Shown: positions 1,792 to 32,719 of the stretch, piece by piece | How positions within the stretch are numbered: the first letter of the stretch is position 1 | Layout: the number at the start of each line of letters is the position of its first letter | Assembly: GCA_000091205.1 (NCBI GenBank) | Contig: AP006500.2 | Reading direction: 5' to 3' (one strand) | Source: Cyanidioschyzon merolae | Taxonomy: Eukaryota | Length of the DNA stretch: 64,000 nucleotides | Notes under the pieces: generated by a model | Database searches by the model: none | What the model was told of the DNA's origin: nothing | What the model saw: only the letters and a program-made list of their open reading frames with translations | Translations under genes and position numbers: made by a program

Positions 1792-1810
1792 CACCACCAC
1801 CACCACCACC

Positions 1811-3109: not shown

Positions 3110-5623
3110 GGCCCTGTTTCCCAAGTGGCGCTCAACGTAGACGCAGCACGAGCATCCGCACTCGAGCTCCGTCTGCGTCGCCATCTAGTCCTCCACAGGA
3201 AACGTGCAACATCGATTCCTGCACTCGCTGTACGCACAGGAGTCCAGCGTTTGCGTGCCACAGCACATCCAGCGCCACAGGCTTCCAGCAATCGACGCGA
3301 CCTGTTGGGTACTCCCTTTTCCAACTGGTCCAGGAGCTTTGCGAGTGCGCGCCCCTCGCCTCCGTCCAACCGAGTCCGTTGGTGGCCCCCCAGCGCCGTC
3401 TCACGGAATCCTGCCAAAGGCTGTGCGCATGCGCAGGTCAGACGCTCGTGCGCGCTCTGAGTTAAAAGTGGAAACCCATCCCACGCTGCTCGACACACTG
3501 CTCAGCGCGTTCACTTTCAGGTCCTGACGCAGTCATTCCGCCTCGTACTTCGCCGTATGCCATCCAAGGTGATGCGCGGCTCCCGATCATACCAAGTGCT
3601 GGACGCGCTGGGCAGCTCCGTCTGCTTGCCATTCAGGTCTTGGGCGGCGCCGTCCGCCTCATTTGCATACACGGGGACGACAAGGGCGCTCTTCAACCTC
3701 GGATCCACGCTCCCAACAGCGACTTTCTCCTCGTCTGCCTTGAACAGTTGAAAATGAGCCTCGTTGGTGACCCAGGTCACGCTTTCACGACGCCCATGCG
3801 TACTGGAGATCCGTCGGTATCCAAAGCCTCGCTACGCGCTGCACGCCATGCCTTCCATGGAGACTAGAAACATCTGAAGAAGCGCCGCCGACGCTTTTCG
3901 TGGACCTGTTCGAGTCCGTCATACTTGCGCGGAGACACCGGATCCTTCTTCGAATACTCCGGTACCTGGCGGAGCAGCACGGACAGCGACGCTTCACTCC
4001 GTATCCGTCTCTTCTTCGGGATCCAGATGCACTGGGTGGACGACGAGCGCCAAGCTCTCCCATACTCTGCTTGTATGCACGCTATCCTCTGTGATGCTTT
4101 TCGTGACCTCATGGGTCACGAGCACGCCCACGGAGTGCAGCGTGCGTTTCCGTTCGCTCCCGCGCACGACCAGGGCGCAGCAGCACAGCAGCTCTCGACC
4201 CCTGCATAGAAGAGAGTAAAGTCGTGGATTCGTCACAGAACGTTGTCTCGGAGGCGAACGACGCATCGACGGATCCGTGAGTGTCCACATGACCTTGGCG
4301 AGCAGACAAGTCGCCCTCGACTGGATGGAGTCGACGAGACCCAGCCCACACTAGGAGCCGTCCACGGCCGTGCGCAGCAGCGTGCGCCTTGGTCGCTTTT
4401 CAGTGGTGATTCGCGACGTCGTAGATTAACAGGACGGTAGAGTACCTGAAGAAGAAGAAGAAGGAGACACAGCAGAAGCCAAGGAGAGTTTCGTCGACTC
4501 GTGAGGCAACAAACGAGCAGGGCTTTCTCGCGAGCTGCAGACCATCACACCAAAACCCTCTCTGCTGCTAACGCCAACACCGTTCTCACTACGGCTGGTC
4601 TCCTGTTTATGACCAGAAGCTTGCCGCAATTTGAGCTCCCATATACACGCCAAGCATCGCTTCCAAATAAAGCCCCATCGACTTCGATGGACACCAGTCC
4701 GCCCTGTGATGAGCATTCGCATTGCCGTTCGGAATCGAACGCGTGGTACTCCACTCGCGACAGTCTCCCAGACAGGCGTGCTTGCTTTTCGTCATCCATC
4801 CGCGTCTTTTCGTCCCAGTTCGTATCGACAGCACAGAAACATCACGCCGTTTGGATTTCTCTCGGTAGGACGTCTCAGGGCACGCAAGCTTAGAAAGCGA
4901 CTGACGAGGCGACACTCGGGTAGAAAGTGCCGGAAAATTTCCGTTTTCGCTCGACAACGTTCATGATATCGGTGAGGATTCGGTTGGTTCACCCATGTGC
5001 TGACCGTGGAATGACTGACTTGTACATGTATGAGCTTTTCTTGCGAGCTCGTCCTGGCAGCATCAAGTCTCTCTGCGCCCGTTCTCCAATATCCAGCATA
5101 CACTCCGTCGGATGAAGACCTGCGACATCGATAAACGAAAACACCAGCGTGCTTGCTGGTACAAGGCACCCATGAATTCATGAATCTAAGTCTCTGAGTA
5201 TAACAATGCACAGGCGTACATATAAACATGAACGTGCCAAAGATCCGCGATGAGCGTCTAATCGGGAGGTTGCGTACGAGACGCACACCGCCCCGCCGAC
5301 GGCTGCTGCACCAGCAAGCTGGGTAGAAGGTCTTGACATGATTCAGGCGTGTTGCTGGTGCATCTGGCATTCGCCTCGAGGCCAAGTCTCCGTCGTAAAC
5401 GCGCGTAGATTTACAACCAACCCTGTCAACTCAAACGTGCGTGACCTGTATCGGAATCGTGTCCAACCTGGTATCATGCGTTTCTGCCCGCTCGCTCAAC
5501 GAGTCTCAGCAGCGCTTGAGAAGCCAGGTTGCATCGCGCAGCCATATGACCTGCAATCAAGTAACACGCTACGTTTCCCGAATGGTCATCATCAGGGCAA
5601 TGGATGCAGTGCCTGTCTCGTAT

Positions 5624-7237
5624 CTAGTTGGGCACGAGCAGCTTTCGTTCAACAAGCGAGCGGGGCCGCCGCTTATGCTCCAAACGCATCTCGTTTTCTG
5701 GTGCAAGTCCGATGCAAGCTCTGAGAATGTTTTCGATGCAGAGGCGCTGACGTGCTAGCGCATTCACCACAGGAGTGCCCTCTGGCACAACGGGTGCCTT
5801 GAGGAAATAGCTCAGTAGCGACAACACGGGATGGAAACGCTCAAATTTTTCCTCATCGGCTCTCTTCATCTCAATACGCTCTGCAAGCTCTGCGAGAATG
5901 GTCAGGTCGAGGATAAGTGGCGCCGCTAGAAGCGAGTCCTCACAGGTCTGGTGAACGACAATGGTGTTCCGTCCGCCCATGAAGATTTCGCTTTCGTACT
6001 CGTCGAGCGCACGTTTGCTATCGCCAACCGCCGGCACATACTTGATGACAACTAAATGGTCCGGACTCTCACCGGGCCTGTAGAGAACCCCGTTACTGGC
6101 AACCATGTCATCCACAACGCTTGACTTGGATATTTCCTTGCTACGAAACTGGCTCGGTGCCGATAAATTCTTTCCATCATTATTACCGAGATGATTATAG
6201 GAGGCTATCGAGAGGGGTTTGATACCGGCACCGATCAGAAAATCAGCGAGAACTGATTTCAGCTTTGTTTGACCCGATTTGAAATCATCGCCACCAATAA
6301 AGACGTCACGTTGCACAGCGAGGTCGATAACCCCGGGCACAAACGTGTTCTGCGGAGAACCGTTAATAAACGAGCAGCCTTCCAGAATTGATGCTGTGGC
6401 AAATAGCGCGCTCGGCGATATCTCCGAGTGACTCGCAGCAATTGCGTGCAGAAGATTCTCCGCGGTATCGTTCACCCCCTCCATGACAGTAGCGTAGCGT
6501 TCCGTGTTGGCCGTCCACAGCACGATGACCTTTTCCACGTTCCTCTCGGCTTTGAAAGCGCGAATATCTGCGCGGATTTTCTCCAAATGTTCCCACTTGT
6601 TGGTGCCCGGGATCAGATTGTCGGCACGTGACGCCTGGTTCGCCGCAATGAAATCCCCATACAGCACCGATGGTAAAGGTTTCAAAGGGGCCATGTACGG
6701 CTCGAGCTGCAGCTGCAGATCGTAGTCAAGTACTTGCGCGCGACGCATCGCTTCTGCGAGGTTCGCACTGGAGATATCCCAGCCACCAATCTCCAGGTCG
6801 TTGGGATTCACCATCGGCAATAGGGCGCGCAAAGGCACAAATACGTCCTCCTCAAATCGCCCGTCGCTTTCGTAAAGACTACCCAGCCGAACGGTGGCGG
6901 ACTGTGTTAGAGAGCCGAAATAGTTCGGAGTCTGAATGCCGTGCTTCGTACGCCAGGTGATGCCCTCGCGGTTCGCAATGACTGCACCAGTGACGGTACT
7001 GCCGTTGTTGCCACCCCAGCCCACCAGCATAAGACCCACCCTCGGTACACGACGCTGCGTGCGGAAAGTATACTTGACCGATAAAGGCCGCACAATCGCA
7101 CGACCACTGTTTCGCTCCAAACGCACGGCATTCGTTTCGTAGTCGACGTCCGCTTCTATGTAGTCGGGCGTGTACCGCACGTTCGGCGCTTGAACGTAAA
7201 CCTCTTCTGCGAGCATTTTCTGCAAGTTCCTAACCAC
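5624..7237 (-). CDS. INO1: myo-inositol-3-phosphate synthase (inositol-1-phosphate synthase), 537 aa, intact single ORF
   Basis: Translation carries hallmark MIPS motifs from established family knowledge: GWGGNNGST near the N-terminus, [10 protein letters not shown], and the NAD-binding region. Length matches eukaryotic MIPS. Confidence 0.95.
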
Positions 7238-9541: not shown

Positions 9542-12352
9542 TTGGCTCGCGGCGTCTTCTATCCAACAGGGATCGAAGAAGCTGGTTGGCTCTCCCTGCT
9601 TGCTATTAGGGTTCCGGAAATGGAAGAAAGACGCAGTGACGTCTTTGATCCCCTGCCGGATCGTAGTCACGCGGCGATCTCGTGGCGAACAGCGGAACCG
9701 CAGACGCCGTCGCCACCGCTGCCAACGGACTTTCCGCGGCCGGTGTCTGCACCGCCCGACTTGGAAGTCCCCGAGCCTTTGCTGCTCGCGTCGTCGGGGA
9801 TCCAACCGAACTGGTTCTCAATCGTGGATATTCGTGCTGATATGGACTATGAATCGTTCTATGATGCTTTTAAGGCGCAAACGAAACTGCCTCCGCCGTT
9901 GGACTCGAGCGTCTTGCGCGGCGACTTTCGAACGGTGCAGCGAGTCCGAAGTCAAAACGAGCGGAGAGAGCACGTATCCATGGACGCTGCGCTGGAACAG
10001 GCGGGTCACGCGTTGGCTGGTCTAGGGGGTACTGGGGGAGCCTCGCTAACGCCGCACTCGTTGGCAGCGTCAAACCGCGGTTATGGCGAGGCGATGCGGT
10101 TCACAGATCCGCACGGGGGGCTCTTAACCATGGAACAAGTTGCGGTCTCGAGCCACGCGGCTCTGGGCAAAGGGCCTGCGTCGCCGGATCAGATGTTATT
10201 CCCCGGAAGCCGAGCCTCACAGATGATGGCAGGGAGCGGCGCGCCTGCAGAGGTATTGCGGCCGGTTGCGAACGCTGGCGCGCTCTTGCGACGCGACGAC
10301 AGTGACGCCTCCGTGGAGAACTTAATTTTCCGTGAAACGCTCAAATACGCCCGACAACTGGACAGGGAGAGTTCGGAAAGCGATCTGAGCACGACCGCGG
10401 AGCGGCGGATAACCGGCTCTGCGACCCAGACAACGAACGCTGCTATATATCATGAGGCGGATCGGCGACTCTGGCAAGCACCGCTCGTCGCTACCACGGT
10501 GCTTTACTCGTCCACGAAGCCGCATCCTGACACTAACGACAATGCGCTCGCACAGAAGGCTGTAGGCTTGGCGGGCACTCAGGATACGGACGGCACAAAA
10601 AATCACGCCGCAGCAACAGCAGCTGCTGCGAGCGCTCCCTCTCATATTTCCGACAACAGCGCAGGTGCAGGTCGTATCCCAAGTGGTGGTACCGGCTGTG
10701 AAGCCGGCGAACGATACGAGGAGCGCAGCTCGCCCCGATCGCGGAACGAACTCGCTGCTGGCATCCAGCGGGGCGTACCGTCGCGTTCGCAGACTCCATC
10801 GATGGCTGCTATTGCAGCCGTGAGTCCGCCCGTTGCCACGATCACCCCGGGGAGTTGTGCAGCAACCTCCGTCGTGCCGCGCATCCCAGTGACGACCTCC
10901 ACGATGGGCGCTCAAGTGGCTCAGACATCCACCCTGATGCCAGCCTGGACAGAAGCTGTTGCGCCAGTCCAGAGTATGGAGAATAGTGGCGCCTTTGACA
11001 TTCGGGATATTCGCGCTCCGCTACCGCACCCGGGTGCCGAGCATCTGCCGAAAAAACCATGGAGCACACGCGGGCGTCCCCGTCGAGCTCCGCGAAACAC
11101 AGCCCGTAGCAGCATTTATCTGGGGCAACATCAAGCGATGCCGTCTCAAGAGCTGCCTGTTGGACTCGATGCTGCGGCTTCTGGTCACCAACCGCATCAT
11201 CCTGAGCTTGTCTCGTTCAAGAGTGCTGCTCTTGCGGCATCCATTCCGACAAACACAGCGCCTGACGGGGCCTTGAGTGACGCGTCTGCCCCGCTCTCTT
11301 GCTTTGCTGGGCGTATGGCGCTGATGGCTCGGGATCAACAGGGAGGCCGCTACCTCCAGGCGCGTCTCGATGTCAAGAATGCTGCAGACACGGCGCTTAT
11401 TTTCGAGGAGTGTCGACCGCATTTCGTGGAGCTTGCGATGGATCCTTTTGGGAACTATCTATGTCAGAAACTCTTCGAGCACTGCAACCGCGAGCAACGG
11501 CTAGAGCTCATTCGACAGAGTGCATCGCAGCTGGCTCAGGTTTGTATGGACCCGCATGGAACTCGCGTTGTGCAGAAAATGATCGAGCTTACCGTTGAAC
11601 CTGAGCACGCCGCACTCATCGCCCAGGCCATCTCGCCGCACTGCCTATCGCTGATGTGTGACGTGAATGGAAATCACGTCATTCAGCGATGCTTACAGAG
11701 AATGGATGTCCCGTTGAGACGCTTTATCTACGACACCGCCCTCACGCGTTATCTGGAAATCGCGAGGCATCGACACGGCTGCTGTGTACTGCAGCGTTGC
11801 CTCGATCACGCGACGGCGGAACAGCGCAGCAACCTCTGCGCCCTGATTCTGAACAGTGCCTATGAACTGATGCAAGACCCGTTCGGCAACTACGTCGTAC
11901 AGTACGTGTTAGAGCTCAAGGAGCCGTCGTATACGAGGGCAATCATTCAACGCATTCGTGGCCACCTTTGGCAGCTTTCCATGCAAAAGTTTAGCTCGAA
12001 CGTGGTAGAGAAAGTCTTCACGATGGCGAACGAGCGAGACCTGCGATCACTGCTTCACGAGCTTTTAGAAGGCCCACAGTCGGTCGAGAGCATGCCGCTA
12101 CAGGTCGGCTCCGAGCAGCACCAACGAAATATACGACCCCTGCTTTTCGATCCGTATGCAAACTACGTCGTTCAGCGGGCGCTTTCGCTGGCGCCCTCAC
12201 CCGTGTTTGAAGCGTTGCGGGAAGCGATTCAACCGCACCTGGCGGAGCTGCGCGGCACACCCTTCGGGAAACGTATTCAAGCTCGCCTCTCACGGACGCC
12301 TTTGCGGACCGGTTCAGCGGTGACGTCCGCGAACGGCTCCAAACGACTCTAG
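9542..12352 (+). CDS. Pumilio/PUF-family RNA-binding protein, 936 aa, with a C-terminal array of about 8 Puf repeats and a long low-complexity N-terminal region
   Basis: C-terminal half contains successive Puf-repeat signatures: FGNYLCQKLFEHC, DPHGTRVVQKMIE, DVNGNHVIQRCLQ, HRHGCCVLQRCLDHA, DPFGNYVVQYVLE, QKFSSNVVEKVF, DPYANYVVQRAL. The true start may be an internal Met (e.g. MEERRSD...). Confidence 0.9.
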   Translation: MARGVFYPTGIEEAGWLSLLAIRVPEMEERRSDVFDPLPDRSHAAISWRTAEPQTPSPPLPTDFPRPVSAPPDLEVPEPLLLASSGIQPNWFSIVDIRADMDYESFYDAFKAQTKLPPPLDSSVLRGDFRTVQRVRSQNERREHVSMDAALEQAGHALAGLGGTGGASLTPHSLAASNRGYGEAMRFTDPHGGLLTMEQVAVSSHAALGKGPASPDQMLFPGSRASQMMAGSGAPAEVLRPVANAGALLRRDDSDASVENLIFRETLKYARQLDRESSESDLSTTAERRITGSATQTTNAAIYHEADRRLWQAPLVATTVLYSSTKPHPDTNDNALAQKAVGLAGTQDTDGTKNHAAATAAAASAPSHISDNSAGAGRIPSGGTGCEAGERYEERSSPRSRNELAAGIQRGVPSRSQTPSMAAIAAVSPPVATITPGSCAATSVVPRIPVTTSTMGAQVAQTSTLMPAWTEAVAPVQSMENSGAFDIRDIRAPLPHPGAEHLPKKPWSTRGRPRRAPRNTARSSIYLGQHQAMPSQELPVGLDAAASGHQPHHPELVSFKSAALAASIPTNTAPDGALSDASAPLSCFAGRMALMARDQQGGRYLQARLDVKNAADTALIFEECRPHFVELAMDPFGNYLCQKLFEHCNREQRLELIRQSASQLAQVCMDPHGTRVVQKMIELTVEPEHAALIAQAISPHCLSLMCDVNGNHVIQRCLQRMDVPLRRFIYDTALTRYLEIARHRHGCCVLQRCLDHATAEQRSNLCALILNSAYELMQDPFGNYVVQYVLELKEPSYTRAIIQRIRGHLWQLSMQKFSSNVVEKVFTMANERDLRSLLHELLEGPQSVESMPLQVGSEQHQRNIRPLLFDPYANYVVQRALSLAPSPVFEALREAIQPHLAELRGTPFGKRIQARLSRTPLRTGSAVTSANGSKRL

Positions 12353-13950: not shown

Positions 13951-14068
13951 CTCGGAGACGCTCGACACGTATGCATATCGTCAAGCGTCGTGCGTGGGCA
14001 CTTACATTGAAAAGAATCTCCGTTGCTTCTGCATGTCAATGTACGGTCAGGTATGTCGAATCATGGAT

Positions 14069-14084
14069 CACCACCACCACCACC

Positions 14085-14132
<48 letters not shown>
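14069..14132. repeat. (CAC)~11(CAT)~10 compound microsatellite, longer allele of the tract at 1792-1843
   Basis: Direct read. Confidence 0.9.
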
Positions 14133-14461
14133 GTTCACCAATGGCCCAGGAAAATCATGCCCGGCATACGCATAGGCGGGATGGTAGCATTGCTGAATCG
14201 CCGACTCGTGCCATACCGGTGCCTTGCTCCAGGCGAGCGTTCAACGCACGCTCTCTTGCTCAATCATACTTTTTCGTCGCAAGTCTTCGGCATTTAAACA
14301 CAGTGCCCACACGGAGCACGAATCGATTCGCTTTAAACTTCGCTCGATACATATAGCCGATAGACGCCCCCCAGGCACGAGACTTTTCCGGGTGTTGATC
14401 GAGACGTTCATGGCTCGGAGCGGAGCCTGCGCCCGCACACATGAATTGCGATGGAATCACA

Positions 14462-15008
14462 CCAAAGTGAGCCTGCCAGCTTCATTTGCCTCGCAATATG
14501 ACGTCCGAGGTCCGCTCGCAGTATCCCATGACGGACATTCCAAAGTGAGCCTGCCAGCTTCATTTGCCTCGCAATATGACGTCCGAGGTCCGCTCGCAGT
14601 ATCCCATGACGGACATTCCAAAGTGAGCCTGCCAGCTTCATTTGCCTCGCAATATGACGTCCGAGGTCCGCTCGCAGTATCCCATGACGGACATTCCAAA
14701 GTGAGCCTGCCAGCTTCATTTGCCTCGCAATATGACGTCCGAGGTCCGCTCGCAGTATCCCATGACGGACATTCCAAAGTGAGCCTGCCAGCTTCATTTG
14801 CCTCGCAATATGACGTCCGAGGTCCGCTCGCAGTATCCCATGTCGGACATTCCAAAGTGAGCCTGCCAGCTTCAATTGCTACGCAATACGACGTCCGAGG
14901 TCCGCTCGCAGTATCCCATGTCGGACATTCCAAAGTAAGCCTGCCAGCTTCTATTGCCTCGCAATTTGACGTCCGAGGTCCGCTCGCAGTATCCCATGTC
15001 GGACATTC
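14462..15008. repeat. 78-bp tandem repeat array, 7 units (5 identical units plus 2 variant terminal units)
   Basis: Same 78-nt unit as 2173-3109. 547 bp = 7.0 units. The translated ORF 14224..15039 shows 5 identical 26-aa units followed by the IATQYD...V and IASQFD...V variant units that also terminate array I. Confidence 0.9.
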
Positions 15009-17944
15009 GGCCCTGTTTCCCAAGTGGCGCTCAACGTAGACGCAGCACGAGCATCCGCACTCGAGCTCCGTCTGCGTCGCCATCTAGTCCTCCACAGGAA
15101 ACGTGCAACATCGATTCCTGCACTCGCTGTACGCACAGGAGTCCAGCGTTTGCGTGCCACAGCACATCCAGCGCCACAGGCTTCCAGCAATCGACGCGAC
15201 CTGTTGGGTACTCCCTTTTCCAACTGGTCCAGGAGCTTTGCGAGTGCGCGCCCCTCGCCTCCGTCCAACCGAGTCCGTTGGTGGCCCCCCAGCGCCGTCT
15301 CACGGAATCCTGCCAAAGGCTGTGCGCATGCGCAGGTCAGACGCTCGTGCGCGCTCTGAGTTAAAGGTGGAAACCCATCCCACGCTGCTCGACACACTGC
15401 TCAGCACGTTCACTTTCAGGTCCTGACGAAGTCATTACGACTCGTACTTCGCCGTATGCCATCCAGGGTGATGCGCGGCTCCCGATCATACCAAGTGCTG
15501 GACGCGCTGGGCAGCTCCGTCTGCTTGCCATTCAGGTCTTGGGCGGCGCCGTCCGCCTCATTTGCATACACGGGGACGACAAGGGCGCTCTTCAACCTCG
15601 GATCCACGCTCCCAACAGCGACTTTCTCCTCGTCTGCCTTGAACAGTTGAAAATGAGCCTCGTTGGTGACCCAGGTCACGCTTTCACGACGCCCATGCGT
15701 ACTGGAGATCCGTCGGTATCCAAAGCCTCGCTACGCGCTGCACGCCATGCCTTCCATGGAGACTAGAAACATCTGAAGAAGCGCCGCCGACGCTTTTCGT
15801 GGACCTGTTCGAGTCCGTCATACTTGCGCGGAGACACCGGATCCTTCTTCGAATACTCCGGTACCTGGCGGAGCAGCACGGACAGCGACGCTTCACTCCG
15901 TATCCGTCTCTTCTTCGGGATCCAGATGCACTGGGTGGACGACGAGCGCCAAGCTCTCCCATACTGTACTTGTATGCACGCTATCCTCTGTGATGCTTTT
16001 CGTGACCTCATGGGTCACGAGCACGCCCACAGAGTGCAGCGTGCGTTTCCGTTCGCTCCCGCGCACGACCAGGGCGCAGCAGCACAGCAGCTCTCGACCC
16101 CTGTGCATAGAAGAGAGTAAAGTCGTGGATTCGTCACACAACGTTGTCTCGGAGGCGAACGACGCATCGACGGATCCGTGAGCGTCCACATGACCTTGGC
16201 GAGCAGACAAGTCGCCCTCGACTGGATGGAGTCGACGAGACCCAGCCCACACTAGGAGCCGTCCACGGCCGTGCGCAGCAGCGTGCGCCTTGGTCGCTTT
16301 TCAGTGGTGATTCGCGACGTCGTAGATTAACAGGACGGTAGAGTACCTGAAGAAGAAGAAGAAGAAGGAGACACAGCAGAAGCCAAGGAGAGTTTCATCG
16401 ACTCGTGAGGCAACAAACGAGCCGGGCTTTCTCGCGAGCTGCAGACCATCGCACCAAAACCCTCTCTGCTGCTAACGCCAACACCGTTCTCACTACGGAT
16501 GGTCTCCTGTTTATGACCAGAAGCTTGCCGCAATTTGAGCTCCCATATATACGCCAAGCATCGCTTCCAAAGAAAGCCCCATCGACTTCGATGAACACCA
16601 GTCCGCCCTGTGATGAGCATTCGCATTGCCGTTCGGAATCGAACGCGTGGTACTCCACTCGCGACAGTCTCCCAGACAGGCGTGCTTGCTTTTCGTCATC
16701 CATCCGCGTCTTTTCGTCCCAGTTCGTATCGACAGCACAGAAACATCACGCCGTTTGGATTTCTCTCGGTAGGACGTCTCAGGGCACGCAAGCTTAGAAA
16801 GCGACTGACGAGGCGACACTCGGGTAGAAAGTGCCGGAAAATTTCCGTTTTCGCTCGACAACGTTCATGATATCGGTGAGGATTCGGTTGGTTCACCCAT
16901 GTGCTGACCGTGGAATGACTGACTTGTACATGTATGAGCTTTTCTTGCGAGCTCGTCCTGGCAGCATCAAGTCTCTCTGCGCCCGTTCTCCAATATCCAG
17001 CGTACACTCCGTCGGATGAAGACCTGCGACATCGATAAACGAAAACACCAGCGTGCTTGCTGGTACAAGGCACCCATGAATTCATGAATCTAAGTCTCCG
17101 TAACGACACCAGCTGTGCACAGACATGCAACGACGGGTGCGCAGGGGGAAACCCCGCCTCGCGTAGTGGGCACTGGAAGCTCGCAAGCAGCGCGAGCCCC
17201 ACGTTGCTGTGCTTGTATCGCTTGCGTTGCTCGCAGGTTGTCGTTTATCTTACCAAAGTACGCTGTTTGCACAGCGTGACGCTGATCGCTTATGAGGCAG
17301 CGAGTGCAACATACCACGCACAGGAGAGCAGCGCGTAATGACTCGAAACGACATGATCTCGCGCGTGCGTTGCAAGGGCGTTAAAAACCCGTCGGTCAGC
17401 GCTTTCGAAACAAGGTCTTGGTACTGGCATGCCAGGGTCACTGGTCCTGTGCGCAGCAACCAAGGCATAGCAGTTGCAACTCTACGGGAATGCATCTTTC
17501 GTCTTGAATACCCGAGGATGCTCGCAGCTGGAGAACGTCAGGCATCAGCGCATCGTGTTTCGAGCATGTTTTCCTGGTGCAGAATAGATGCATCGGACGA
17601 AAGGCTTTGTGGAAGCTTATCGTTCTTCGCGTGTCCAGGAAGGACACCTCAACTTCTTGGCAAATACTTTGACGCGTCACACACCTTAAGGCGCCTAGCA
17701 ATACGCCACGCTCCATCGCCTGTGCAATGGCATTCGTGCAGTGACAACGCGCTGAACTGAGAGCGGCGCACCTCCAGGGGCCTGACCTCTCGACGGTTGC
17801 GTCCGAAAAGCGTCCGCTATCAACGTGTGCTGCGATGTCAATGCAGATATCGAGAAGGCTCTGGGCATATCCAAAAAGGAGACGCGCATTTGCTGGTGCT
17901 TTTCATTGTACCTAGTCGATGGAGTCAGAGTGCCCAGTCGCGCT

Positions 17945-19834
17945 CTACGAGAGGAACAGGGATTCGACGGGCTCCCAGTAGCCAGCTTCGCGTTCCCAGG
18001 CGAGCAGACGGTCCACCTCCTCGGCCGATAAGGTTACGCTCTGGTGCGCGCTTTGACGGACACCGGCCACTGTACGTTCGAGCAACTGACGGTAGGTGGC
18101 ACGGTCAGCGAAAAAGTTCACCGGCGGTGGTGCCTGCTGAAATTCCCGGTAGAAATCACGCAACGTGATGAGCGCCATTTCCAGCCACATCTCATCCCGC
18201 TCAACGACGAACAACCGCGCGCCCGCATCAGGTGTCCATGAAATGAAATGGGCTCGCCAGGTATCTGTGCAAAGCATTTGGAGCTGGACCTGGGCAAAAT
18301 GGTTCGCATAGATCAGCCGCTGCGGTGAAACCAAGCGGTAGCGATAGAGCGGACGATCTGTGGCTTCATCCGTTAGTCGCGGGCCGTCAGTCATGTCTCC
18401 TGTTGGGACAAACGGGCAGGGACATTTCACTTCGACGAGTTCGATATCGTGCGACAAGTCGCTCGAAGCAGCCAATGTGTTCGGTTGCGTATCCTGGGTC
18501 CGGGCCTCAGAATGAAGAGGACTGCGCCACCTAAGCAGCGCGTCTGGGCTCGCCGCGATCGTTGGTAACGCTGAAAATTCGTCCAAGTCATAGATGCCTG
18601 CACAGGAGGCCGGCTGCAGCATATGCAGCCCCGCTTCGACAAGCACCAGTTTCGCGAAAGAAGTATTCGTCGCTGTGGACGCCCCGGGAACAAGGCCACG
18701 GTCTGGAGCACCGTCCCCGGGAACAATCGAGTAATAGCAGGATGCTGCATCCGCAGTACGCGCGGATTCGAGGTAGCGCAGCACCGTCAACAGTCCATTC
18801 TGTTCGTGCATTTTCCCCCACTCCATCGAGATCATCGATGCTGGAGAAAAGGTCTCAGCATCGAGTCCCGGCTCGCGCCACTGGCGCCAGGCCTCCAGTG
18901 CAGCTTCACCTCCGCGTCGGAACTGCCATGCCGGCACACACTCCCGCAACCATTCGAGGGTTGCGGGTTCACCGAAACCAAGCGCTTTCCATGCGGACGA
19001 AGCATTCACTCGCATGTGCCGTCGTGCCTCTAGCCACAGCGCCGAGTCCTGTCGGATACGAGTTAGATCCTCTGGACGTTCGATCACGAGCGCCTCAACC
19101 GGGGGCAGCGCCTCGTAGCAGGGATGTCGCCGGAGTTGCTCTCTTGTGATTGCGCAATATGCTAGGTTCGGTTTCGTGCCAGTCGGATCAGGATGGGTCG
19201 TTACTGTGAGCTGGCGCTTCGATGGATGCCCTGGAGCTGGTGCGGACGGCTCGCGGGGCCTCTCATCGTTGACAGATGCCCGTGAGTGTTGTTCGCAATG
19301 ATCCGCAAACCTATCGAGCCGCTCGAGCAGAAGCTGCTTCTGGTTCATGCTGAACTCGAGGTAACGACCTATTGCTGTCCGGTACCGCCAGACAACGGTG
19401 AGAATTTGTTCGGAAAGCACACCTCCGCCGAGTACGGCACTTAGCAAGGCGTCCACCTGGGTTTGGAAGGCCTGGCCGGCGCGCTCGTTCCCCGCATCCA
19501 CAGCTAATCGCTCACATTCGCGACGAACAAGGGTTCGCAGTTTCCGGAAACTCTCCATCACAGGATGCACAGACTGCGGCACGGAAGATTTGATGTATCC
19601 GCCGGATTGTTGGTGGACACACCTGACTGCTCGCCGCTGCAGATAATAGTGGTTCCTACGCGGCTGCGGGAGCGCGGTAACGCAGCGCGATATCTTGTGC
19701 CGTGCAGCAAGACGTCGAGTGCTCGAGCGTTGATGGCACAGGTGCGGCCCAGCCGCGAAACCGCTTGCAGTCTCTAACATCAAGTCACGACCTCGCGGCG
19801 TTTCTCTGATAGAAAACACCTGCGGGTTCAACAC
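17945..19834 (-). CDS. Lambda-exonuclease/YqaJ-family (PD-(D/E)XK) nuclease-domain protein, 629 aa, with an uncharacterised basic/Ser-rich N-terminal ~250 aa
   Basis: C-terminal ~330 aa aligns motif-by-motif with phage lambda Exo/YqaJ from memory: [27 protein letters not shown] ~ [39 protein letters not shown] ~ [24 protein letters not shown]...[13 protein letters not shown] ~ ACSPDGLC...[24 protein letters not shown]...[11 protein letters not shown] ~ YMAQVQYSMWVT...HYVVIERDEKY. Confidence 0.8.
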   Translation of the reverse strand: [629 protein letters not shown]

Positions 19835-20439
19835 AGTCAGAACACGTCCACGGCGCCGCCGGTGTCAATCGCGAGAGCGTAGTTGATTCAAGACGCTTTT
19901 CAGGAGAAAAAAAGCTCACCAAAGTGCTCACGGAGCGTCTGCCGTCACACGCTCGGGTACTCACCAACGAGCGCACGTGTTCTGGTTTGGGAGGTTTCAG
20001 GTGCCCGAGGCAGCAAACACAGGCTCCCTTTGTCCCGTCTCGATGCGCCAGCAACAGTGACGTAGACCAGCGGTCGTCCCTGTTGGACCGATCTTCGTTT
20101 CAAACGATTCGTTTGGAGCACCGTCTCCTCCAAAAGCGCTTCGTATGCGCTTGCCAGCTGCAACGGTAGCGGCAGCGTCGGCCTCGTGTACGCAGGGCAC
20201 GGGACGGCCTTGGTCAAGCAGCTGGGCATGAAATTTGTCTAAACTGGATATACCTGGACTTGGCGGACGCGAGTAGAGGGTTGCGCTTTGGAGGTGGTGC
20301 TCAGTGCGATTCCGTTGGAAGCACGTACCAGTCTCGACGAGCTGGCGTATGGGAGCGTCTCTAGACTGGTATAAGAATGAAATAAAGGAGGCTCATGCAG
20401 GGAACTCGGGCGTATACGAATGAATTCTGGAACTGTTCC

Positions 20440-21600
20440 CACTGTTATTGGCACAAGCCTTTGCGGGCTCTCTCTCATGCTGCTTCCCGATCCTCGTTCT
20501 TGTTTGTCTCCGGATTTTACATACGCCGGCCTTTCTTGTCTCTTCAGGTCCGTTGCCAGCAGTCGAAGGATGTTTATGGCTGCCCCCGAGTCTCGGTTAC
20601 GTCGTTTTGCAGCTCTTACCGACGCATTTGGTGCACAGATGGAAGCTGTGATCTACGATTCGGTAACGATTTGCATCTTTCTTGTATACATCGGTAGCTC
20701 TCGATCCGCGACGTTTACACTTGAGTGTCATCAGGTGCTCCCATACGTCCATCACAAGACTTCGTCCGCTGAGCGCCGCCCTGTGACGCGTGAACGCTCG
20801 CTGCATCGCTCGATACATGCCGTTGACTGGCAAGAAACGAAAAAGCTTCCAACGATCCTGTGCTTCGGTTCCTGGCCCAGTGCTGCACTCGAAGACCAGG
20901 AGCTGTATCTGGGCGATACGCGCGGCGAGTACGCTGTCCGCTGCACTTGCAAGTGCATGCTATTCTAACGAATAGAGGATTTTAGGACCTTGTTGTTGCC
21001 TGTGATGAAACAGGTATCGGAGAGGGAATCGAGGCTCCGGAGTACGTCGAAAAGTATCGAACCGAATATGCTCGCTTCGTGCAAAGCGGAGATGCGCGCT
21101 CCATAGAGACAGATCGCTGTAATGACTCATGTCCATATCCAAGACCATTTCTTATAGAGCTAGGAGAGACGGGAACTCCTGCGCGCATATCCCGTCGAAG
21201 GCATGGTGATGGTGCATTCGCGACCGGCTTCGTCGATGACCTGCAGGAAATGAAGCTTCATCTTTAGACCGGAGACGATTATGCGACGTCGGCAGCTCCA
21301 CGAGGTTTTCGGCATGCGCTTGTAAACAAGTCGTCAAAGCTCGACGTCGACAATTTTTTGCGTCGTCAAGTGTGCGGTGCCAATGGATACGCCTCGAGTT
21401 GCCCGTGAACACAAGGATCCAACACTCGTAGAATGCGTGATTCGATTCTGGTACACGTAAGAAAAGGATTCAAGAACAGTGGCAGCTCGTTTCTATAACT
21501 TCGATGACGATATCGGTTATTTGACGAATCCGAGCTCGGGGATGTCGCGAATCATCCTGATGAAGATGACGTAAAAGCGTCCAGCGGCACAGCGTGAAAG
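20440..21600 (+). repeat. Dispersed intergenic repeat family, copy C (5' portion clear, 3' extent approximate)
   Basis: ggattttacatacgccggcctttcttgtctcttcaggtccgttgccagcagtcgaaggatg aligns with 55000-55050 (ggctttagatacgccggtctctgttttccctccagtttcgttgtccgtagtcgaaggatg). gctgcatcgctcgatacatgccgttgactgg aligns with 55290 gctgcatcgctcgatacatgtgtttgacggg. Weaker matches continue to about 21550 (gacgaatccgagctcgggg ~ gactcgaatccgagtccaag). Confidence 0.6.
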
Positions 21601-22818
21601 GCTCCTCTGCGAAAAGCCGACCGCGGATCCAAAAATTACGCGTGAATCCGGCAGCACTTGCACCTGCTTTTCGCATGTCGAGGCTGTACACGTAAAAAAG
21701 CTCGGGAAAATTGAAAGACCCGAATGGAGCCACAGCTTCAGTGTTCCATTTTCATCTGGTACGTTTCTGGGGCAGCGGAGACCCTGTTCCTCATTGGTGA
21801 CAGAGCTTGCCCATTTTATGAGTGCTGACTCAATGCACTGTTGCAGTACCATAAAACATAACCAACGCAACAGCTTTTCCACATGATTTTACTTGTTTTT
21901 GCATCAAGCCTCGACAAAGGCACGGCCGTAGACGGCAAATGTGTCTTCATCCGTTACGTGCATCAGTACGGCCTGCCATGAACCATAATCCGGATCGAGT
22001 TCAGCGACTCGACGCGAAAGCTACAAGATGGTGGACAGGTCTTGCACACCGCCGCAACGTGCAACTAGCGGAGGCGATAGTAGCGAAGACGCTCACCAGC
22101 GCTTCACCGGACAGCGGTCCAGTGCGACGTTGATGATAGTCTGAGATTCACCGCCATGTTAAGGGGCACACGTACACCCGCGCAGTTTCGTTTGGCGTTC
22201 TGCTCCAAACAGCGTCACGAAGCCCGGGAGGACGCAACGCGAGACCCAGCTACGACTGCGCTTGCCGGCGCTAGTGCCGGCGTTGCGGTGCACGAATCAT
22301 GCATTGCTCATCAACAAACTGGTCGCTGTCACGCTCCATGACGCTTTGAGGGCACCATGAAATCTTCAACAAAAGTTTTGAACAGGAGTCTGCGCTGCCG
22401 CACGTGCACCGAGCGCACGTTCGCAGTCACAGAACGTGCAACGGAACCGTTGACGGTGCTATGGCTCGCTTCGGTCATGCTTTCTATGCCGCCGAGACTC
22501 CCACGTCGATACCGATGCCGGACAACGACTGTGACCAGGGAGGATACTTTGCGAGACGCGAACTATCTTTACTGAGGACTGCATACAGCCTGAGTCATCA
22601 CGACTCATCGCCGGTAACGTCTACAGGCACGACTGGAACTGCAGCGCCCAGCCTAGAACCGCGCATCTCTGTCCGTCATGCTGTCGAGGGATGTCCCGAA
22701 TCCATCCTCTGGCATTCATCAAATTCCAGGTGCAGTCCATTGCCTAGTGGACCTGATGCATGAGCGGCTCATCGTCTAATGACGTTGGAGATGAACAGCT
22801 CGCATCGGCAATCGGTGC

Positions 22819-23676
22819 TTACCGGACGACTGGGCCAAGGGCACGCAGCTCTAGTCGCTGCCGCTCTGCCCAGAAGCATCCGCTATACAAATGCGGTTCT
22901 TGCTCCGCTTCGCGCGGTAGCAACGCGAGAAACACCGCTGTATCTGCGCCCTCTTCGACAGTCTTCACACCCCGATGAGATGTCATGTCGGTTTTCACGT
23001 AGCCAGGACACATGGCGTTCACGAGCACATGCGGATGTATCGAGCGTAGCCGCTGCGCTAGGATTACGGCGTACATGGTTTCCAGCATTTTGCTCACCGC
23101 ATACGTTTGACGCGGCCATCCGTGCTGCGCATAGGAGCCATCCCCCACAGAGCGCACAAAATCCTCGGCGAGAGCATCCAATTCCTCGACGGTGCGCGCT
23201 CCCAGAAGACGCTCTCGGAGCTCAGCATTCGTTATCTTGTCAAAATTGCCAGCCCTGGATGAAACGAACACAATGCGACCCCCATCAGGCTGAATGTAGG
23301 GCAAGAGAGCCTCAGTCACGAGCTTCGTTCCGTAGTAGTTGCACCCAACGGTTTCGCGGGCAACTTTCTCGTCAAATGCGTCTCCTTTGTAGGCCATACC
23401 AGCATTATTGACCAAAATATCGACGGGGCGCTTCAGGGACTTGACATAGTCGCGGAACTTGGTTACCGTGTCCGGCTGCAGCAAGTCTAGCGCATGCCAA
23501 AGCGCCGGGTGCTCGGTGCTACCCACCTCTTTACTAATTGAATCGGCAGCCTCTTTAGCTGCCTCAGGTGTGCGTGCCGTAACCAAGACCTGCAGGCCTT
23601 CCTCCTGAGCAAGGCGCTTGGCGATGGCCCGGCCAATACCTCGTGAGCTTCCAGTGATAATCGCTAAGCGAGTCAT
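22819..23676 (-). CDS. Short-chain dehydrogenase/reductase, carbonyl reductase (CBR1)-like, ~285 aa
   Basis: N-terminal Rossmann motif TGSSRGIGRAIA right after a Met (MTRLAIITG...), NNAG, catalytic YxxxK (YAVSKMLET), and the C-terminal CPGYVKTDM...EEGADTAVFLALLP pattern typical of carbonyl reductases. The ORF track extends to 23736 (MYRIKSRF...); the internal Met at 23676 gives the canonical SDR N-terminus. Confidence 0.88.
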   Translation of the reverse strand: MTRLAIITGSSRGIGRAIAKRLAQEEGLQVLVTARTPEAAKEAADSISKEVGSTEHPALWHALDLLQPDTVTKFRDYVKSLKRPVDILVNNAGMAYKGDAFDEKVARETVGCNYYGTKLVTEALLPYIQPDGGRIVFVSSRAGNFDKITNAELRERLLGARTVEELDALAEDFVRSVGDGSYAQHGWPRQTYAVSKMLETMYAVILAQRLRSIHPHVLVNAMCPGYVKTDMTSHRGVKTVEEGADTAVFLALLPREAEQEPHLYSGCFWAERQRLELRALGPVVR

Positions 23677-23968
23677 GATTGCGTTTTCCCACAGTCTGTG
23701 CGGATTTCTTGAAAATCTGCTCTTAATTCTATACAATCCTGCGCCTACCTTGAAGAGAATTCTAATACGAGACCCTCTTTAGGTGCTAGCGCACGTCTAC
23801 CACTACTATACGCGGAGCAAATCCAAACCAACACAGAAGAAGTTTGTCACAACAAACGGAAATGGCGCAATGCACGACGCAGACGCGTATGACTGGCAGG
23901 CGCTGCATCGCGAAAACGTCGCGATGCGTCGCGGCGCAGGCGGAGGCATCATCTGTGCTGGAGCATAA

Positions 23969-24188
23969 TGCGTGGTAAGTTTTATACAGGATTTGACAGG
24001 TACAATGAAGCGGACGTGCGTGATGCGTGACAAGTTTTATACAGGATTCGACAGGTACAATGAAGCGGACGTGCGTGATGCGTGACAAGTTTTATACAGG
24101 ATTTGACAGGTACAATGAAGCGGACGTGCGTGGTAAGTTTTATACAGGATTTGACAGGTACAATGAACCGGACGTGCGTGATGCTCAT
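23969..24188. repeat. 55-bp (48/55-bp variant) minisatellite, 4 units, in the divergent promoter region between the SDR and PPR genes
   Basis: Direct read: tgcgtgatgcgtgacaagttttatacaggatttgacaggtacaatgaagcggacg repeated, with two units lacking the 7-nt 'atgcgtg' insert. Confidence 0.85.
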
Positions 24189-25381: not shown

Positions 25382-27685
25382 GTGAAAGGAGTGAGCGCAC
25401 AGGTTCACTTGTGTTCGATAGCAGATCTAGACTGTACAGGTTTTAGGCTGAAGAACACGTCGCAGATGCGCTCAAGCGTTGTGACGCTTAGCGGATGGGC
25501 GCTCAGGAACCTCAGGTTCGCATACCCGCGTAACAATGACGGAGTTCGCGTGCTGAAACGCTTTCTTGGCCGGGACCTCGCATCGAGACAGCTGATCCCG
25601 CATACGCGCTTTTTGGCGACAAGCGCAGATGGCTCTGCGTCTCTACCTGGGACGCAGAGCGCAGAAACACTCGCAGTTTCTGCTGAGAGTGAGGCGCTTC
25701 GGTCGGCCTTGGGGTTGCTGCGCAATCATCGGATCGCGGAAGCGCATCGCGTCGTACGGGAGCAACTCCTGGCCAATGGTCCTCTTCCCACAGAGGTCCG
25801 GCGAAAGATTATGTCAGCTGGATCGCGTAGTGGCGCAACTGCTCTGGTCGAAGAAGTGCTGGAGCGCACGGTATCGGAAACCGCGGAACCTTCTTCTTCT
25901 GTCTTCGATCACAATGCCGTTCTGCGAGCGTGTGAAGTCGCCATGGATCTTCATCGAGCGGAAAGAATTTTCAGTAATATGCCTGAACGAAATCATTACT
26001 CGTACGCGATCATGGCGGTAATCTACAGCAACGCTGGCCGCATGCGACATGCACTGGACATGGCTTCCAGGGCACTCGGTGGACTTGACCTGCACAAAGC
26101 ACTGGAGAAGTTGCCGTCTCAGACCAAATCCACCGCTGCCCCAGCAGATGCAGAGACCATCCCGGCTGCCGCCAGCGCCTCCGAGGAGCAGTCGGCCATG
26201 GAGGCCGAGGAGGAACCTGCGACGGCTGCCGAAGATCACCTGGAAGAAACGCCCTCAACGGCGACGGGTGCGCTCACCCCAGCCCAAAAGTCTTTCCTCA
26301 TGAGTCGCCTGATTGATTCCTCGTTGCGCTACCGCTACAACCACGTCGCACTCAACTTATTGCGTGTCATGCGAGAGGAGCTTAGAATGCGGCCGCGCTT
26401 GACAACGATTTCCAACTTGCTTGTCAGGTTATGCAATGCCAACAATGCGCAGGCCAGCTATGAACTGCTGAACGGTATTCGTCGGCCGGGCATATGGGCA
26501 ACACTACGCGGTGCGCGCCCGATAGAACTCGGTGTGTTGCTTCCGGCTCTGGGTTGCGCACTTCGAAACGACCACTATGCTCTTGGTGATCTGGCGTGGA
26601 ACGAGATCCAGAGTCGCTACTTGCCTGCCGAAAGGCAGATTGTTCTTGGATCCGTCTCGGCAGCCGGCGAGAAGAGCGCTAGCCAATCCCTCTTCGAAGT
26701 TCCTGACATATTCTTTTATACTCGCGCGAATCTGTTAGCGCGGCAAGACAGCAAGGAGTTCCAAAGCACGAAACCAGAGGAAGCAACAAGCAGTGCTCCC
26801 GCTGCGCAGCCGGCGCCAGGAACCGCAGACTCGAGTACCAGCACAGAGCCTCGAACCGAGGTTATCTTGAGTGAGCGGATGCGTTCGTGTTTCGAGCTAT
26901 TGCGGCTGTTGCATCACCGCAAGTATCAGCGTGTGCTGGGTCTGGACATCACCGTCGATGCAAGAGACACGGCGCCTCGGATAGAGCTACTTCGCGGAGT
27001 CGTGAATTCGCTCGCTTGCCACGTTGACCGGGTCGATGCTGCCCATTTCTTCCTGGAACATGAACTTGTTCGGGAAGCCGTGCCGAATACCGCCGCACCG
27101 CAGGCGCTGCTACCAGGAAAAATGGATCTTTTAGCTCCCTTGAATTGTGTCATTGCAGCGTCGTCGCAAATGGGAGACCTTGACCGCGCATTTCAAACCT
27201 ACGAAACCCTACAGGATCATGGTAAGAAACACCAGCTTGTTCCGAATATCGAGACTTTTAATGCGCTTTTGCTTGGATGCGGCAAGCAAGGTCACTGGGA
27301 GGCGGCCAAGCTTGTCCTGGAAAAGATCCAGGAAGAGCAGTTGAAGGCGACTGGCGAGACGCACGAGAAGATCCTCTACGTGATGCTTCGAGCGCGCCGT
27401 TTCCAGGAGGCCATCGAGTACCTGCGCCAGAACTCGAACCAGCCGAAGCATGCGGAGGACCAAGCGCGTGCAGGTCGCGCCCCCGTTCCTTTTACTGCTT
27501 ATCGAATGGTAGCGCGCATAGCGCTTCTTAGACCAGATGCTCCAGCGGTTGTGCGTGAATTGCAGCATCTTGCAGCACAGGCCGGCTACCATAATCTAGA
27601 TTTGACTCGGATACACTCGGCTCGTGCCCGCGAAGAACGTGGTGCTAGCAATGCAAGCGCCTCGGGAGTGAACCCATCATCGTGA
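25382..27685 (+). CDS. Pentatricopeptide-repeat-like helical-repeat protein, 767 aa, probably organelle-targeted
   Basis: Several ~35-aa degenerate PPR-type units (e.g. HNAVLRACEVAMDLHRAERIFSNMPERNHYSYAIMAVIYSNAGRMRHALDM; ETFNALLLGCGKQGHWEAAKLVLEKIQEE). No other family recognised; the start codon is uncertain. Confidence 0.6.
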   Translation: MKGVSAQVHLCSIADLDCTGFRLKNTSQMRSSVVTLSGWALRNLRFAYPRNNDGVRVLKRFLGRDLASRQLIPHTRFLATSADGSASLPGTQSAETLAVSAESEALRSALGLLRNHRIAEAHRVVREQLLANGPLPTEVRRKIMSAGSRSGATALVEEVLERTVSETAEPSSSVFDHNAVLRACEVAMDLHRAERIFSNMPERNHYSYAIMAVIYSNAGRMRHALDMASRALGGLDLHKALEKLPSQTKSTAAPADAETIPAAASASEEQSAMEAEEEPATAAEDHLEETPSTATGALTPAQKSFLMSRLIDSSLRYRYNHVALNLLRVMREELRMRPRLTTISNLLVRLCNANNAQASYELLNGIRRPGIWATLRGARPIELGVLLPALGCALRNDHYALGDLAWNEIQSRYLPAERQIVLGSVSAAGEKSASQSLFEVPDIFFYTRANLLARQDSKEFQSTKPEEATSSAPAAQPAPGTADSSTSTEPRTEVILSERMRSCFELLRLLHHRKYQRVLGLDITVDARDTAPRIELLRGVVNSLACHVDRVDAAHFFLEHELVREAVPNTAAPQALLPGKMDLLAPLNCVIAASSQMGDLDRAFQTYETLQDHGKKHQLVPNIETFNALLLGCGKQGHWEAAKLVLEKIQEEQLKATGETHEKILYVMLRARRFQEAIEYLRQNSNQPKHAEDQARAGRAPVPFTAYRMVARIALLRPDAPAVVRELQHLAAQAGYHNLDLTRIHSARAREERGASNASASGVNPSS

Positions 27686-31513: not shown

Positions 31514-32719
31514 ATGCAAGCGCTGCAGCAGCTTACATGGGGTTTCGAGCATCGACAGGCAGATGTCGTAGAACATGCGCTCGAACAACTCTTCAATGAC
31601 GCTCAATCGAGCCAACAAGCAGCCCTGATTCTGGATCAAAATCGTAGCAACAACTGGGCGACGCTGGTATGGCACTGGAGTCGTGCTGCAACGACCTGGC
31701 ACACTGTGGCGCGTTCGGACGCTTCAGTTGCACAGATTTTTCAAGAGCTGAAGAACGCTTTATCAAGTCTCTATGACGAAATGCGCAACGAGAACAGCGG
31801 CAACTGGTTTGTCCCTATTGCAGCGCTGCTCTGCCGATACCTCGTCCAGTGCGCTGCTCGCGTCCAGGTGGAGCGCTCGGACCCGCTGCGCACGGATCGC
31901 GACCGTAGAGCGCGTCTCGCTGAGGCAGAAACAATCATTAAAAGAGGGTTGGCACTCATGATCAATGACAGAAGTGCAGAGATATCGGAGTCGAAGAAGC
32001 TTGGCGCCCTCGGCATGATCGTGTACCTGCTCCGTATCTACTTTGCGTTGAACAATTTGCGCATGTGCGCTAGCCTTGTCCGGACGGTGGAGTCACCGGG
32101 ATTCCCGCCATTAGATGACGCGTTTCCTCTCGACCAACGGGTGACTTATCACTACTTTGTGGGACGCATCGCGCTGTACGAGGATCGGTACGTGGAAGCG
32201 GAAACGCATCTCGCATTCGCGGCTCACCACTGCCCCGTGCGATACGAACGCAACCGTAAGCGGATATGGACGTATCTCGTACCGGTGCGACTGCTGCAGG
32301 GTCGTTTGCCCAGCGTCCGGCTCCTTCGTAAGTACGGACTACGTGTGTATGAACGGCTGCGTGAAGCTGTTATCTATGGGGATATTCGACAATTCGATGA
32401 TGTACTGCGTAGACATGGTGAATTCTTCATTCAAAGCGGCCTGCTTTTCACGGTTGAAAAACTTCGTCTGATTGTGTATCGGAATCGGTTTCGCGTTGCG
32501 GTTCGTTTACTGAATTCGACTCGCATACCGTTGGCGGCCCTGCAGTGCGCCTTAACGGATCCGAAACCCGCACTTGATGAGCTGGAGTGCCTGGTCGCGA
32601 ATCTGATCTATCGCGGCTTTATTCGCGGGTACGTCTCTCACCAGAAGAAATACCTTGTGACGAGTGCAAAAGACGCTTTTCCGGATATAGCACGAGTTTC
32701 ACCTGGTGTGCTGCGCTGA
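31514..32719 (+). CDS. PCID2: PCI-domain protein, PCID2/CSN12/Thp1-like, 401 aa
   Basis: C-terminal winged-helix end LVANLIYRGFIRGYVSHQKKYLVTSAKDAFP matches the conserved C-terminal signature of Csn12/PCID2 (...IKGYISHQ..LVVSK...PFP). Size (~400 aa) and the helical TPR-like N-half fit. Confidence 0.78.
   Translation: MQALQQLTWGFEHRQADVVEHALEQLFNDAQSSQQAALILDQNRSNNWATLVWHWSRAATTWHTVARSDASVAQIFQELKNALSSLYDEMRNENSGNWFVPIAALLCRYLVQCAARVQVERSDPLRTDRDRRARLAEAETIIKRGLALMINDRSAEISESKKLGALGMIVYLLRIYFALNNLRMCASLVRTVESPGFPPLDDAFPLDQRVTYHYFVGRIALYEDRYVEAETHLAFAAHHCPVRYERNRKRIWTYLVPVRLLQGRLPSVRLLRKYGLRVYERLREAVIYGDIRQFDDVLRRHGEFFIQSGLLFTVEKLRLIVYRNRFRVAVRLLNSTRIPLAALQCALTDPKPALDELECLVANLIYRGFIRGYVSHQKKYLVTSAKDAFPDIARVSPGVLR

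Follow-up and report, generated by a model that had tools for sequence, protein, structure and literature searches.

Does a gene for a phage-type recombination nuclease in the nucleus of an alga represent a recent acquisition, or does it belong to an established eukaryotic family with a task of its own? This question is raised by a minus-strand gene in a 64,000-nucleotide stretch of the Cyanidioschyzon merolae genome (contig AP006500.2 of assembly GCA_000091205.1), which we refer to as the window and whose first letter is position 1. An initial annotation made from the letters alone described the gene as encoding a nuclease of the lambda exonuclease (lambda Exo)/YqaJ type with an added N-terminal region, and framed it as a gene of a sporadic, phage-like family or one derived by horizontal gene transfer (HGT). 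In this study, sequence profiles and a predicted structure bear out the first part of this description, and the relatives of the gene lead us to correct the second. Overall we lean, with moderate confidence, towards a vertically inherited lambda Exo-type nuclease that is imported into an organelle and performs 5'-3' resection of DNA ends. Public databases already contain the gene, the protein and the YqaJ label, and the finding is in this respect a rediscovery.

Gene model and identity

The open reading frame (ORF) at 17945-19834 is uninterrupted and comprises 629 codons when counted from a GTG, a start that was set by the ORF lister under the bacterial code. In this frame, ATG first occurs at codon 19 (19778-19780), and the 611-aa product that begins there is identical at 611 of 611 positions to CYME_CMR041C of C. 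merolae 10D (XP_005538358.1, BAM82322.1, UniRef100_M1VGM7). This identifies the ORF as the nuclear gene CMR041C. It is deposited as a hypothetical protein, and UniRef names the product "YqaJ viral recombinase domain-containing protein". The same ATG start is common to the deposited model and to all full-length homologs and cluster members; because of this agreement, we take the first ATG to be almost certainly the true start and define the coding sequence (CDS) from it (Table 1). Thus the open frame first reported is real, while its 629-aa product has to be shortened at the N-terminus. Residue numbers below refer to the 611-aa protein, except where stated otherwise.

Membership in the lambda Exo/YqaJ family

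Direct searches with the single sequence gave little. The CMR041C protein alone matched no Pfam family at E<=1, so that the Pfam YqaJ check proposed for it failed, an outcome that had been named in advance as refuting the assignment, and the best match to Pfam YqaJ among four Cyanidiales proteins was one at E=0.1. The PHROG family of RecE-like recombination exonucleases gave a sub-threshold match (E 3.3e-6, residues 510-586 of the 629-aa ORF), and TIGR03033 scored 17 bits, below its 68-bit cutoff. A phmmer search of the protein against the PDB found no match, and a four-sequence Cyanidiales profile found nothing usable there. Word-indexed homolog searches returned three Cyanidiales proteins only, the homologs being at 53-55% identity, even when profiles were used as the query.

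An exhaustive hmmsearch with the Cyanidiales alignment against 1.84 billion representative sequences found 352 proteins at E<=1e-3, 106 of them at E<=1e-10. From these we built a family alignment of 61 sequences, which consists of 58 relatives from this search, CMR041C and two other Cyanidiales proteins. Pfam YqaJ (PF09588) is matched directly by 32 of the 61 (best E 3.2e-12), and the family profile matches the PDB entries of Laribacter LHK-Exo (3syy, 3.6e-10) and lambda Exo (1avq, 5.5e-7). An hhalign comparison of the family profile with lambda Exo, the sequence of which was taken from NC_001416, gave a probability of 96.4% and an E-value of 1.1e-9 over 197 columns, covering lambda residues 10-209 of 226.

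The hhalign alignment pairs lambda Exo residues W24, R28, E85, D119, E129, K131 and Q157 with W249, R253, E326, D413, E450, K452 and Q497 of CMR041C. The PD-(D/E)XK triad D413/E450/K452 is therefore in register with that of lambda Exo, and the accessory residues specific to lambda Exo (R253, E326 and Q497) are kept as well; R253 corresponds to R28, the 5'-phosphate-binding residue of lambda Exo. The catalytic motifs were found in 119-130 of 151 family sequences. In addition, the predicted fold of CMR041C agrees with that of lambda Exo, and neither the herpesvirus-type alkaline exonucleases (PF01771), nor RecE (PF12684), nor Cas4-RecB proteins gave the best sequence or fold match.

On these profile alignments and the predicted structure, CMR041C is assigned to the lambda exonuclease/YqaJ branch of the PD-(D/E)XK superfamily, and its C-terminal part can be followed motif for motif, including the ELVEVKCP and AQVQLQM blocks on which the initial annotation was based. 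We let this evidence override the failed Pfam test because the profile and structure comparisons indicate homology; in the case of CMR041C, failure of a single-sequence test did not imply that homology was missing. Judged by its active-site residues, the enzyme is catalytically intact. The opposite possibility, namely a catalytically dead descendant of a nuclease with a structural or DNA-binding role, could appeal to the large loop insertions and extra domains relative to lambda Exo and to the lack of a direct Pfam match, but all catalytic and phosphate-binding positions are kept and are conserved across the family; we consider it very improbable, and the pseudoenzyme reading was rejected on the basis of the conserved catalytic residues.

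Domain architecture

According to the predicted structure and the family alignment, CMR041C is composed of a basic, acid-poor presequence of about 69 aa, a four-helix module specific to Cyanidiales, a linker and a nuclease domain of 416 aa (Table 1). An N-terminal region of about 250 aa had been called unrecognizable. An added region does exist, but it divides into the presequence, the four-helix unit and a 24-aa linker, and from residue 196 onward it is a conserved extension of the nuclease domain.

Residues 1-69 contain 12 K+R against one D+E, are rich in Arg, include 10 S+T, and are weakly conserved with a predicted local distance difference test (pLDDT) score below 50 throughout. The four-helix unit is predicted with a pLDDT of about 84-96 (helices 71-94, 99-118, 124-138 and 145-171). 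A fold search with it gave generic helix-bundle matches only, and a hidden Markov model of residues 70-171 matched Cyanidiales proteins only among the 192 sequences compared. Note that a structure prediction made from the four Cyanidiales sequences alone reached a pLDDT of 35 and was discarded.

Residues 196-240 carry the motif G..PN..WRA.....LR.HP.F..LP, whose positions are kept in at least 50-80% of the sequences in the 61-member family alignment. The lambda Exo alignment starts at residue 235, and the early part of this segment has no lambda Exo counterpart; it is conserved across the whole eukaryotic family and is assigned to the nuclease domain. The catalytic core contains lineage-specific loop insertions at about 349-369, 420-445 and 458-480. 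The C-terminal extension carries the motif PPP.NFF...Y..FL..T...FL[DS] and two helices (561-579 and 586-598) predicted at high pLDDT.

Table 1. Features of the CMR041C locus (window coordinates; residues of the 611-aa protein)
Feature	Position	Strand	Basis
CMR041C CDS (611 aa and stop)	17945..19780	-	ORF; 611/611 to XP_005538358.1
18 codons from the upstream GTG to the first ATG; probably 5' untranslated, non-coding	19781..19834	-	starts of homologs and of the deposited model
Predicted organelle-targeting presequence, residues 1-69	19574..19780	-	composition and disorder; targeting putative
Four-helix unit, residues 70-171	19268..19573	-	predicted structure; by sequence only in Cyanidiales
Disordered linker, residues 172-195	19196..19267	-	pLDDT <50; unconserved
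N-terminal extension of the nuclease domain, residues 196-240, specific to the eukaryotic family	19061..19195	-	family alignment; pLDDT >90
Lambda Exo/YqaJ-like PD-(D/E)XK catalytic core, residues 241-546	18143..19060	-	
Family-specific C-terminal extension, residues 547-611	17948..18142	-	conserved in the family; past the end of the lambda Exo alignment
Codon R253, aligned to lambda Exo R28	19022..19024	-	hhalign; invariant in Cyanidiales
Codon E326 (WGK..E motif), aligned to lambda Exo E85	18803..18805	-	WG...E pattern in 128/151 family sequences
Codon D413 (ASPD), aligned to catalytic D119 of lambda Exo	18542..18544	-	invariant in the 61-sequence alignment; motif in 130/151
Codons E450-V-K452, aligned to catalytic E129 and K131 of lambda Exo	18425..18433	-	at least 90% conserved; motif in 119/151
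Codons Q497-V-Q499 (AQVQLQM), aligned to lambda Exo Q157-V-Q159	18284..18292	-	Q497 at least 90% conserved

Compared with lambda Exo (Red-alpha; PDB 1avq, 3slp, 3sm4) and LHK-Exo, to which its identity is about 21%, CMR041C adds a presequence and a four-helix module, is a eukaryotic nuclear gene, and has no adjacent gene for an annealing protein. Its nuclease domain of 416 aa is also longer than the 226 aa of lambda Exo, with loop insertions and conserved N- and C-terminal extensions. These extensions are shared with the eukaryotic YqaJ proteins, such as Rhodosorus A0AAV8ULY3 and Pseudictyota A0A7R9VT58, which fall in the same clade as CMR041C and among which N-terminal sequences of targeting type recur, whereas the four-helix module is confined to Cyanidiales and the other members bear different N-termini, including La domains.

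Relatives, phylogeny and chromosomal position

All relatives that can be named are plastid-bearing algae or other plastid-bearing eukaryotes: the red algae Porphyridium and Rhodosorus, the streptophyte alga Mesostigma, the green alga Auxenochlorella, the diatom Pseudictyota, the dinoflagellate Gymnodinium, and MMETSP transcripts. In BLAST comparisons, CMR041C matches the eukaryotic members over about 375 aa with E-values of 1e-45 to 1e-14, against 6.6e-4 for lambda Exo.

Viral and prokaryotic sequences are more distant. The best match among phage records has an E-value of about 1e-3 and 28% identity over about 120 aa. Two loci were found in GTDB genomes and 111 in IMG/VR (80 retained), all of them partial matches to about 100-160 residues of the core; a tighter scan of viral contigs with the four-sequence alignment found no relative, and none of the viral contigs scanned carried the family-specific extensions. 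Among viral structure models, the best matches are R354-like/YqaJ nucleases of giant viruses (mimivirus R354, PDB 5yet; homologs in Clandestinovirus and medusavirus), with E-values of 1e-6 to 1e-4, 12-17% identity and a sequence-profile E-value of 0.09.

A neighbor-joining tree of 31 family members and 24 viral or prokaryotic YqaJ proteins, calculated from 224 columns, places the eukaryotic family in one clade (bootstrap 157/200), within which the Cyanidiales (200/200) stand beside other red algae. CMR041C carries both flanking extensions of this clade and is closer to the eukaryotic than to the viral and prokaryotic members.

The chromosomal position is conserved as well. The order of genes in the window is Ino1 (5624-7237, minus), PUF (9542-12352, plus), CMR041C (minus), SDR (22819-23736, minus), PPR (25382-27685, plus) and PSMD3/PCI (31514-32719, plus). 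The whole order from Ino1 to PSMD3 is repeated at the Cyanidiococcus locus, and the core of SDR, the nuclease gene, PUF and Ino1 is also present in a third Cyanidiales genome. The GC content of CMR041C agrees with that of its surroundings.

As far as these sequence comparisons can be read, CMR041C is a member of a separate, ancient clade found widely among eukaryotes with plastids, and its inheritance in Cyanidiales has been vertical, with its place on the chromosome conserved. With 352 relatives, plastid-bearing hosts wherever these can be named, conserved synteny, a separate eukaryotic clade and no close relative found in phages, giant viruses or prokaryotes, the data do not support the framing as a sporadic, phage-like or HGT-derived gene. 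In essence, they place the gene where the initial annotation had said it should not lie if that framing were right, that is, inside a vertically inherited eukaryotic nuclease family. A 2012 survey of the PD-(D/E)XK superfamily likewise lists YqaJ in "Bacteria, Eukaryota, phages" with the entry "No HGT observed" (PMC3424549). A transposon origin was also considered and rejected: the gene is single copy and syntenic, and no repeats touch it.

Targeting and localization

The suggestion that the protein is targeted to an organelle fits the sequence of its N-terminus, which is basic, acid-poor and disordered and has an early Phe. All three of the Cyanidiales N-termini (3/3) combine such a Phe, in a short hydrophobic stretch, with a basic tract; that of Cyanidiococcus reads MLGFAVLFPGV once the in-frame upstream ATG is used. 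An N-terminal Phe motif is a feature of plastid precursors in red algae and glaucophytes (PMC2222254), and an ASAFAP motif is a feature of secondary red plastids (PMC4329603). Five family members (P0015, P0025, P0027, P0050 and P0072) begin with what resembles a signal peptide and then have an A|F junction; another two start with MAFV... or ...SAFIAP. In tomato, the "phage-related exonuclease" Solyc10g081050, listed as an ortholog of At1g67660, was detected in the chloroplast stroma (PMC10493611); by its description it is a candidate relative of CMR041C. We regard an organellar location of CMR041C as quite probable from these signals, with the plastid favored.

Two observations on the N-termini of relatives may be added. 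In the deposited model of the Cyanidiococcus yangmingshanensis protein (P0002, 552 aa), the start is probably placed 44 codons too far downstream; the alternative ATG is at L003:9869 (L003:9869-10003) and gives an N-terminus that resembles that of C. merolae. In seven stramenopile-like members (P0015, P0027, P0050, P0072, P0102, P0135 and P0025), a motif L(I/V)PSQ(V/L/A) follows just after the putative targeting signal, and may indicate where the mature protein begins or be a conserved element of the N-terminus.

Proposed function and alternative explanations

From the homology and the targeting signals we infer the following course of events. The CMR041C precursor would enter an organelle, with the plastid as the likeliest destination, and there the mature enzyme would use D413/E450/K452 as its metal site and R253 as its 5'-phosphate pocket. 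At the ends of double-stranded DNA it would degrade the 5'-ended strand, and the 3' single-stranded tails left behind would serve recombination-dependent repair or replication of organelle DNA. A resection role for CMR041C is, on its sequence, a tentative assignment, which we hold less firmly than the location.

Lambda Exo-type enzymes are processive (PMC3424549), and a processive 5'-3' resection nuclease has not yet been identified in plant organelles (bioRxiv 10.1101/2024.11.05.621957). The niche proposed here resembles that of OEX1 and OEX2, the plant organellar 5'-3' exonucleases/flap endonucleases, which are also nuclear-encoded and serve organelle DNA maintenance. However, their fold is unrelated, being derived from the 5'-nuclease domain of Pol I, and OEX1 is distributive and unlikely to do resection directly (bioRxiv 10.1101/2024.11.05.621957). 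One could speculate that the algal and plant lambda Exo-type clade is the missing processive 5'-3' end-resection enzyme of recombination or recombination-dependent replication in plastid (perhaps mitochondrial) DNA, with the four-helix module perhaps linking it to a partner within the organelle, for instance a RecA-type recombinase or a single-strand-binding protein; in this full form we think the proposal rather doubtful. Its interest is that the distribution of the clade follows plastids while the field of organelle genomes is without an assigned processive end-resection nuclease. The single-copy CMR041C gene in the genetically tractable C. merolae would offer a clean entry point to the resection question. 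Searches of the searchable literature library turned up neither a paper on CMR041C nor any functional work on the algal and plant clade.

Several points weigh against an organelle-imported, vertically inherited resection enzyme. Membership in the YqaJ family rests on profiles and a predicted structure because CMR041C has no direct Pfam match, and the neighbor-joining tree is a simple one with moderate support. Of the 137 complete family members, only about 10 have a recognizable red-lineage plastid signal; the Phe motif is no more than a rule of thumb, and the presequence of CMR041C, judged by its composition, would also suit a mitochondrial signal. Some relatives have no N-terminal extension, the Auxenochlorella member having almost none. 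In three of the 61 aligned members, for example P0011 of Gymnodinium smaydae, an RNA-binding La domain lies N-terminal to the YqaJ nuclease; because of these cases we consider the N-terminal module to have been swapped between lineages, and by the same token RNA or RNA-DNA hybrids may be substrates of some members. Finally, a two-component module of the Red type, in which the exonuclease gene adjoins a gene for a single-strand annealing protein (Red-beta/RecT, ERF or Rad52-like), was not found: no such family occurs among the window ORFs of at least 250 aa, and the neighbors of CMR041C are PUF, SDR, PPR, Ino1 and PSMD3.

The alternative that survives best keeps the same enzyme and chemistry and moves them to the mitochondrion, either solely or by dual targeting, where the enzyme would resect the ends of mitochondrial DNA. 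Plant organelle DNA-maintenance proteins are often dual-targeted, and the Arg-rich, acid-poor, disordered presequence fits this destination too. Plant mitochondria, too, lack an identified resection nuclease (bioRxiv 10.1101/2024.11.05.621957). Against this stand the early Phe in each of the Cyanidiales N-termini, the stromal location of the plant phage-related exonuclease and the restriction of the named relatives to plastid-bearing organisms; moreover, a signal peptide with an A|F junction, as in the stramenopile-like members, is a plastid and not a mitochondrial signal (PMC4329603). We consider the mitochondrial destination unlikely.

Less likely again is a nuclear or cytosolic nuclease whose substrates are RNA or intermediates of nuclear DNA repair, with the N-terminal region as a regulatory or interaction module. 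The La domains, that of the dinoflagellate member included, and the nearly absent extension in Auxenochlorella would suit this role, and so would the presence of a RAD51 gene in the same window, although gene linkage means little in eukaryotes. Some PD-(D/E)XK alkaline exonucleases also degrade RNA, according to the table entry for the viral alkaline exonuclease (PMC3424549). What counts against it is that the 69-residue N-terminus, being basic, acid-poor, disordered and poorly conserved, is typical of a cleaved presequence, that several relatives have bipartite plastid signals, and that R253, the equivalent of lambda Exo R28, is kept.

The least probable explanation is recent HGT from a phage, a prophage or a giant virus, or contamination of the assembly with bacterial DNA, for which one may cite the mostly phage-borne fold family, the R354-like structure models and the weak PHROG match, but which is largely refuted by the long eukaryotic matches against the short, core-only viral and prokaryotic ones, by the separate eukaryotic clade, by synteny with housekeeping genes in three Cyanidiales genomes, by the GC content and by the survey cited above.

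Surrounding window

A segmental duplication does lie beside the gene, as had been noted: about 3 kb at 1763-5194 recur at 14040-17098 with about 98% identity. About 850 bp separate its end from the stop codon of CMR041C, and the gene itself is untouched. Each copy lies shortly past the 3' end of a gene on the minus strand, the first that of Ino1 and the second that of CMR041C. The duplication holds a tandem minisatellite with a 78-nt unit, in about 11 copies at 2095-3174 and about seven at 14306-15073. The long ORFs over this minisatellite (1935-3140, plus; 2168-3184, minus; 14224-15039, plus) have no Pfam matches or low-complexity ones, with no stretch that passes by itself, and are probably not genes.

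The gene had also been placed between two dispersed-repeat copies, which we could not confirm, as the region 17099-22818 contains no repeat found elsewhere in the window at E<=1e-5. A nuclear RAD51 gene (47792-49309, minus; Pfam Rad51, 1.6e-126) is located about 28 kb from CMR041C, and unrelated housekeeping genes for NOC3, a glycosyltransferase and an FNR-like oxidoreductase lie between the two. The proximity is probably a coincidence; a functional link of CMR041C to RAD51 or to the segmental duplication was considered and rejected, there being nothing beyond proximity.

Three other ORFs of about 390-435 aa (36032-37339, minus; 41257-42438, plus; 61721-62905, minus) gave no Pfam match at E<=1e-3. 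The sole other repeats in the window are a small tandem array at 23968-24184 (period about 55 nt), which lies immediately past the SDR start, and a weak dispersed pair, 46906-47026 and 55566-55686, with copies of about 120 nt that are 75% identical.

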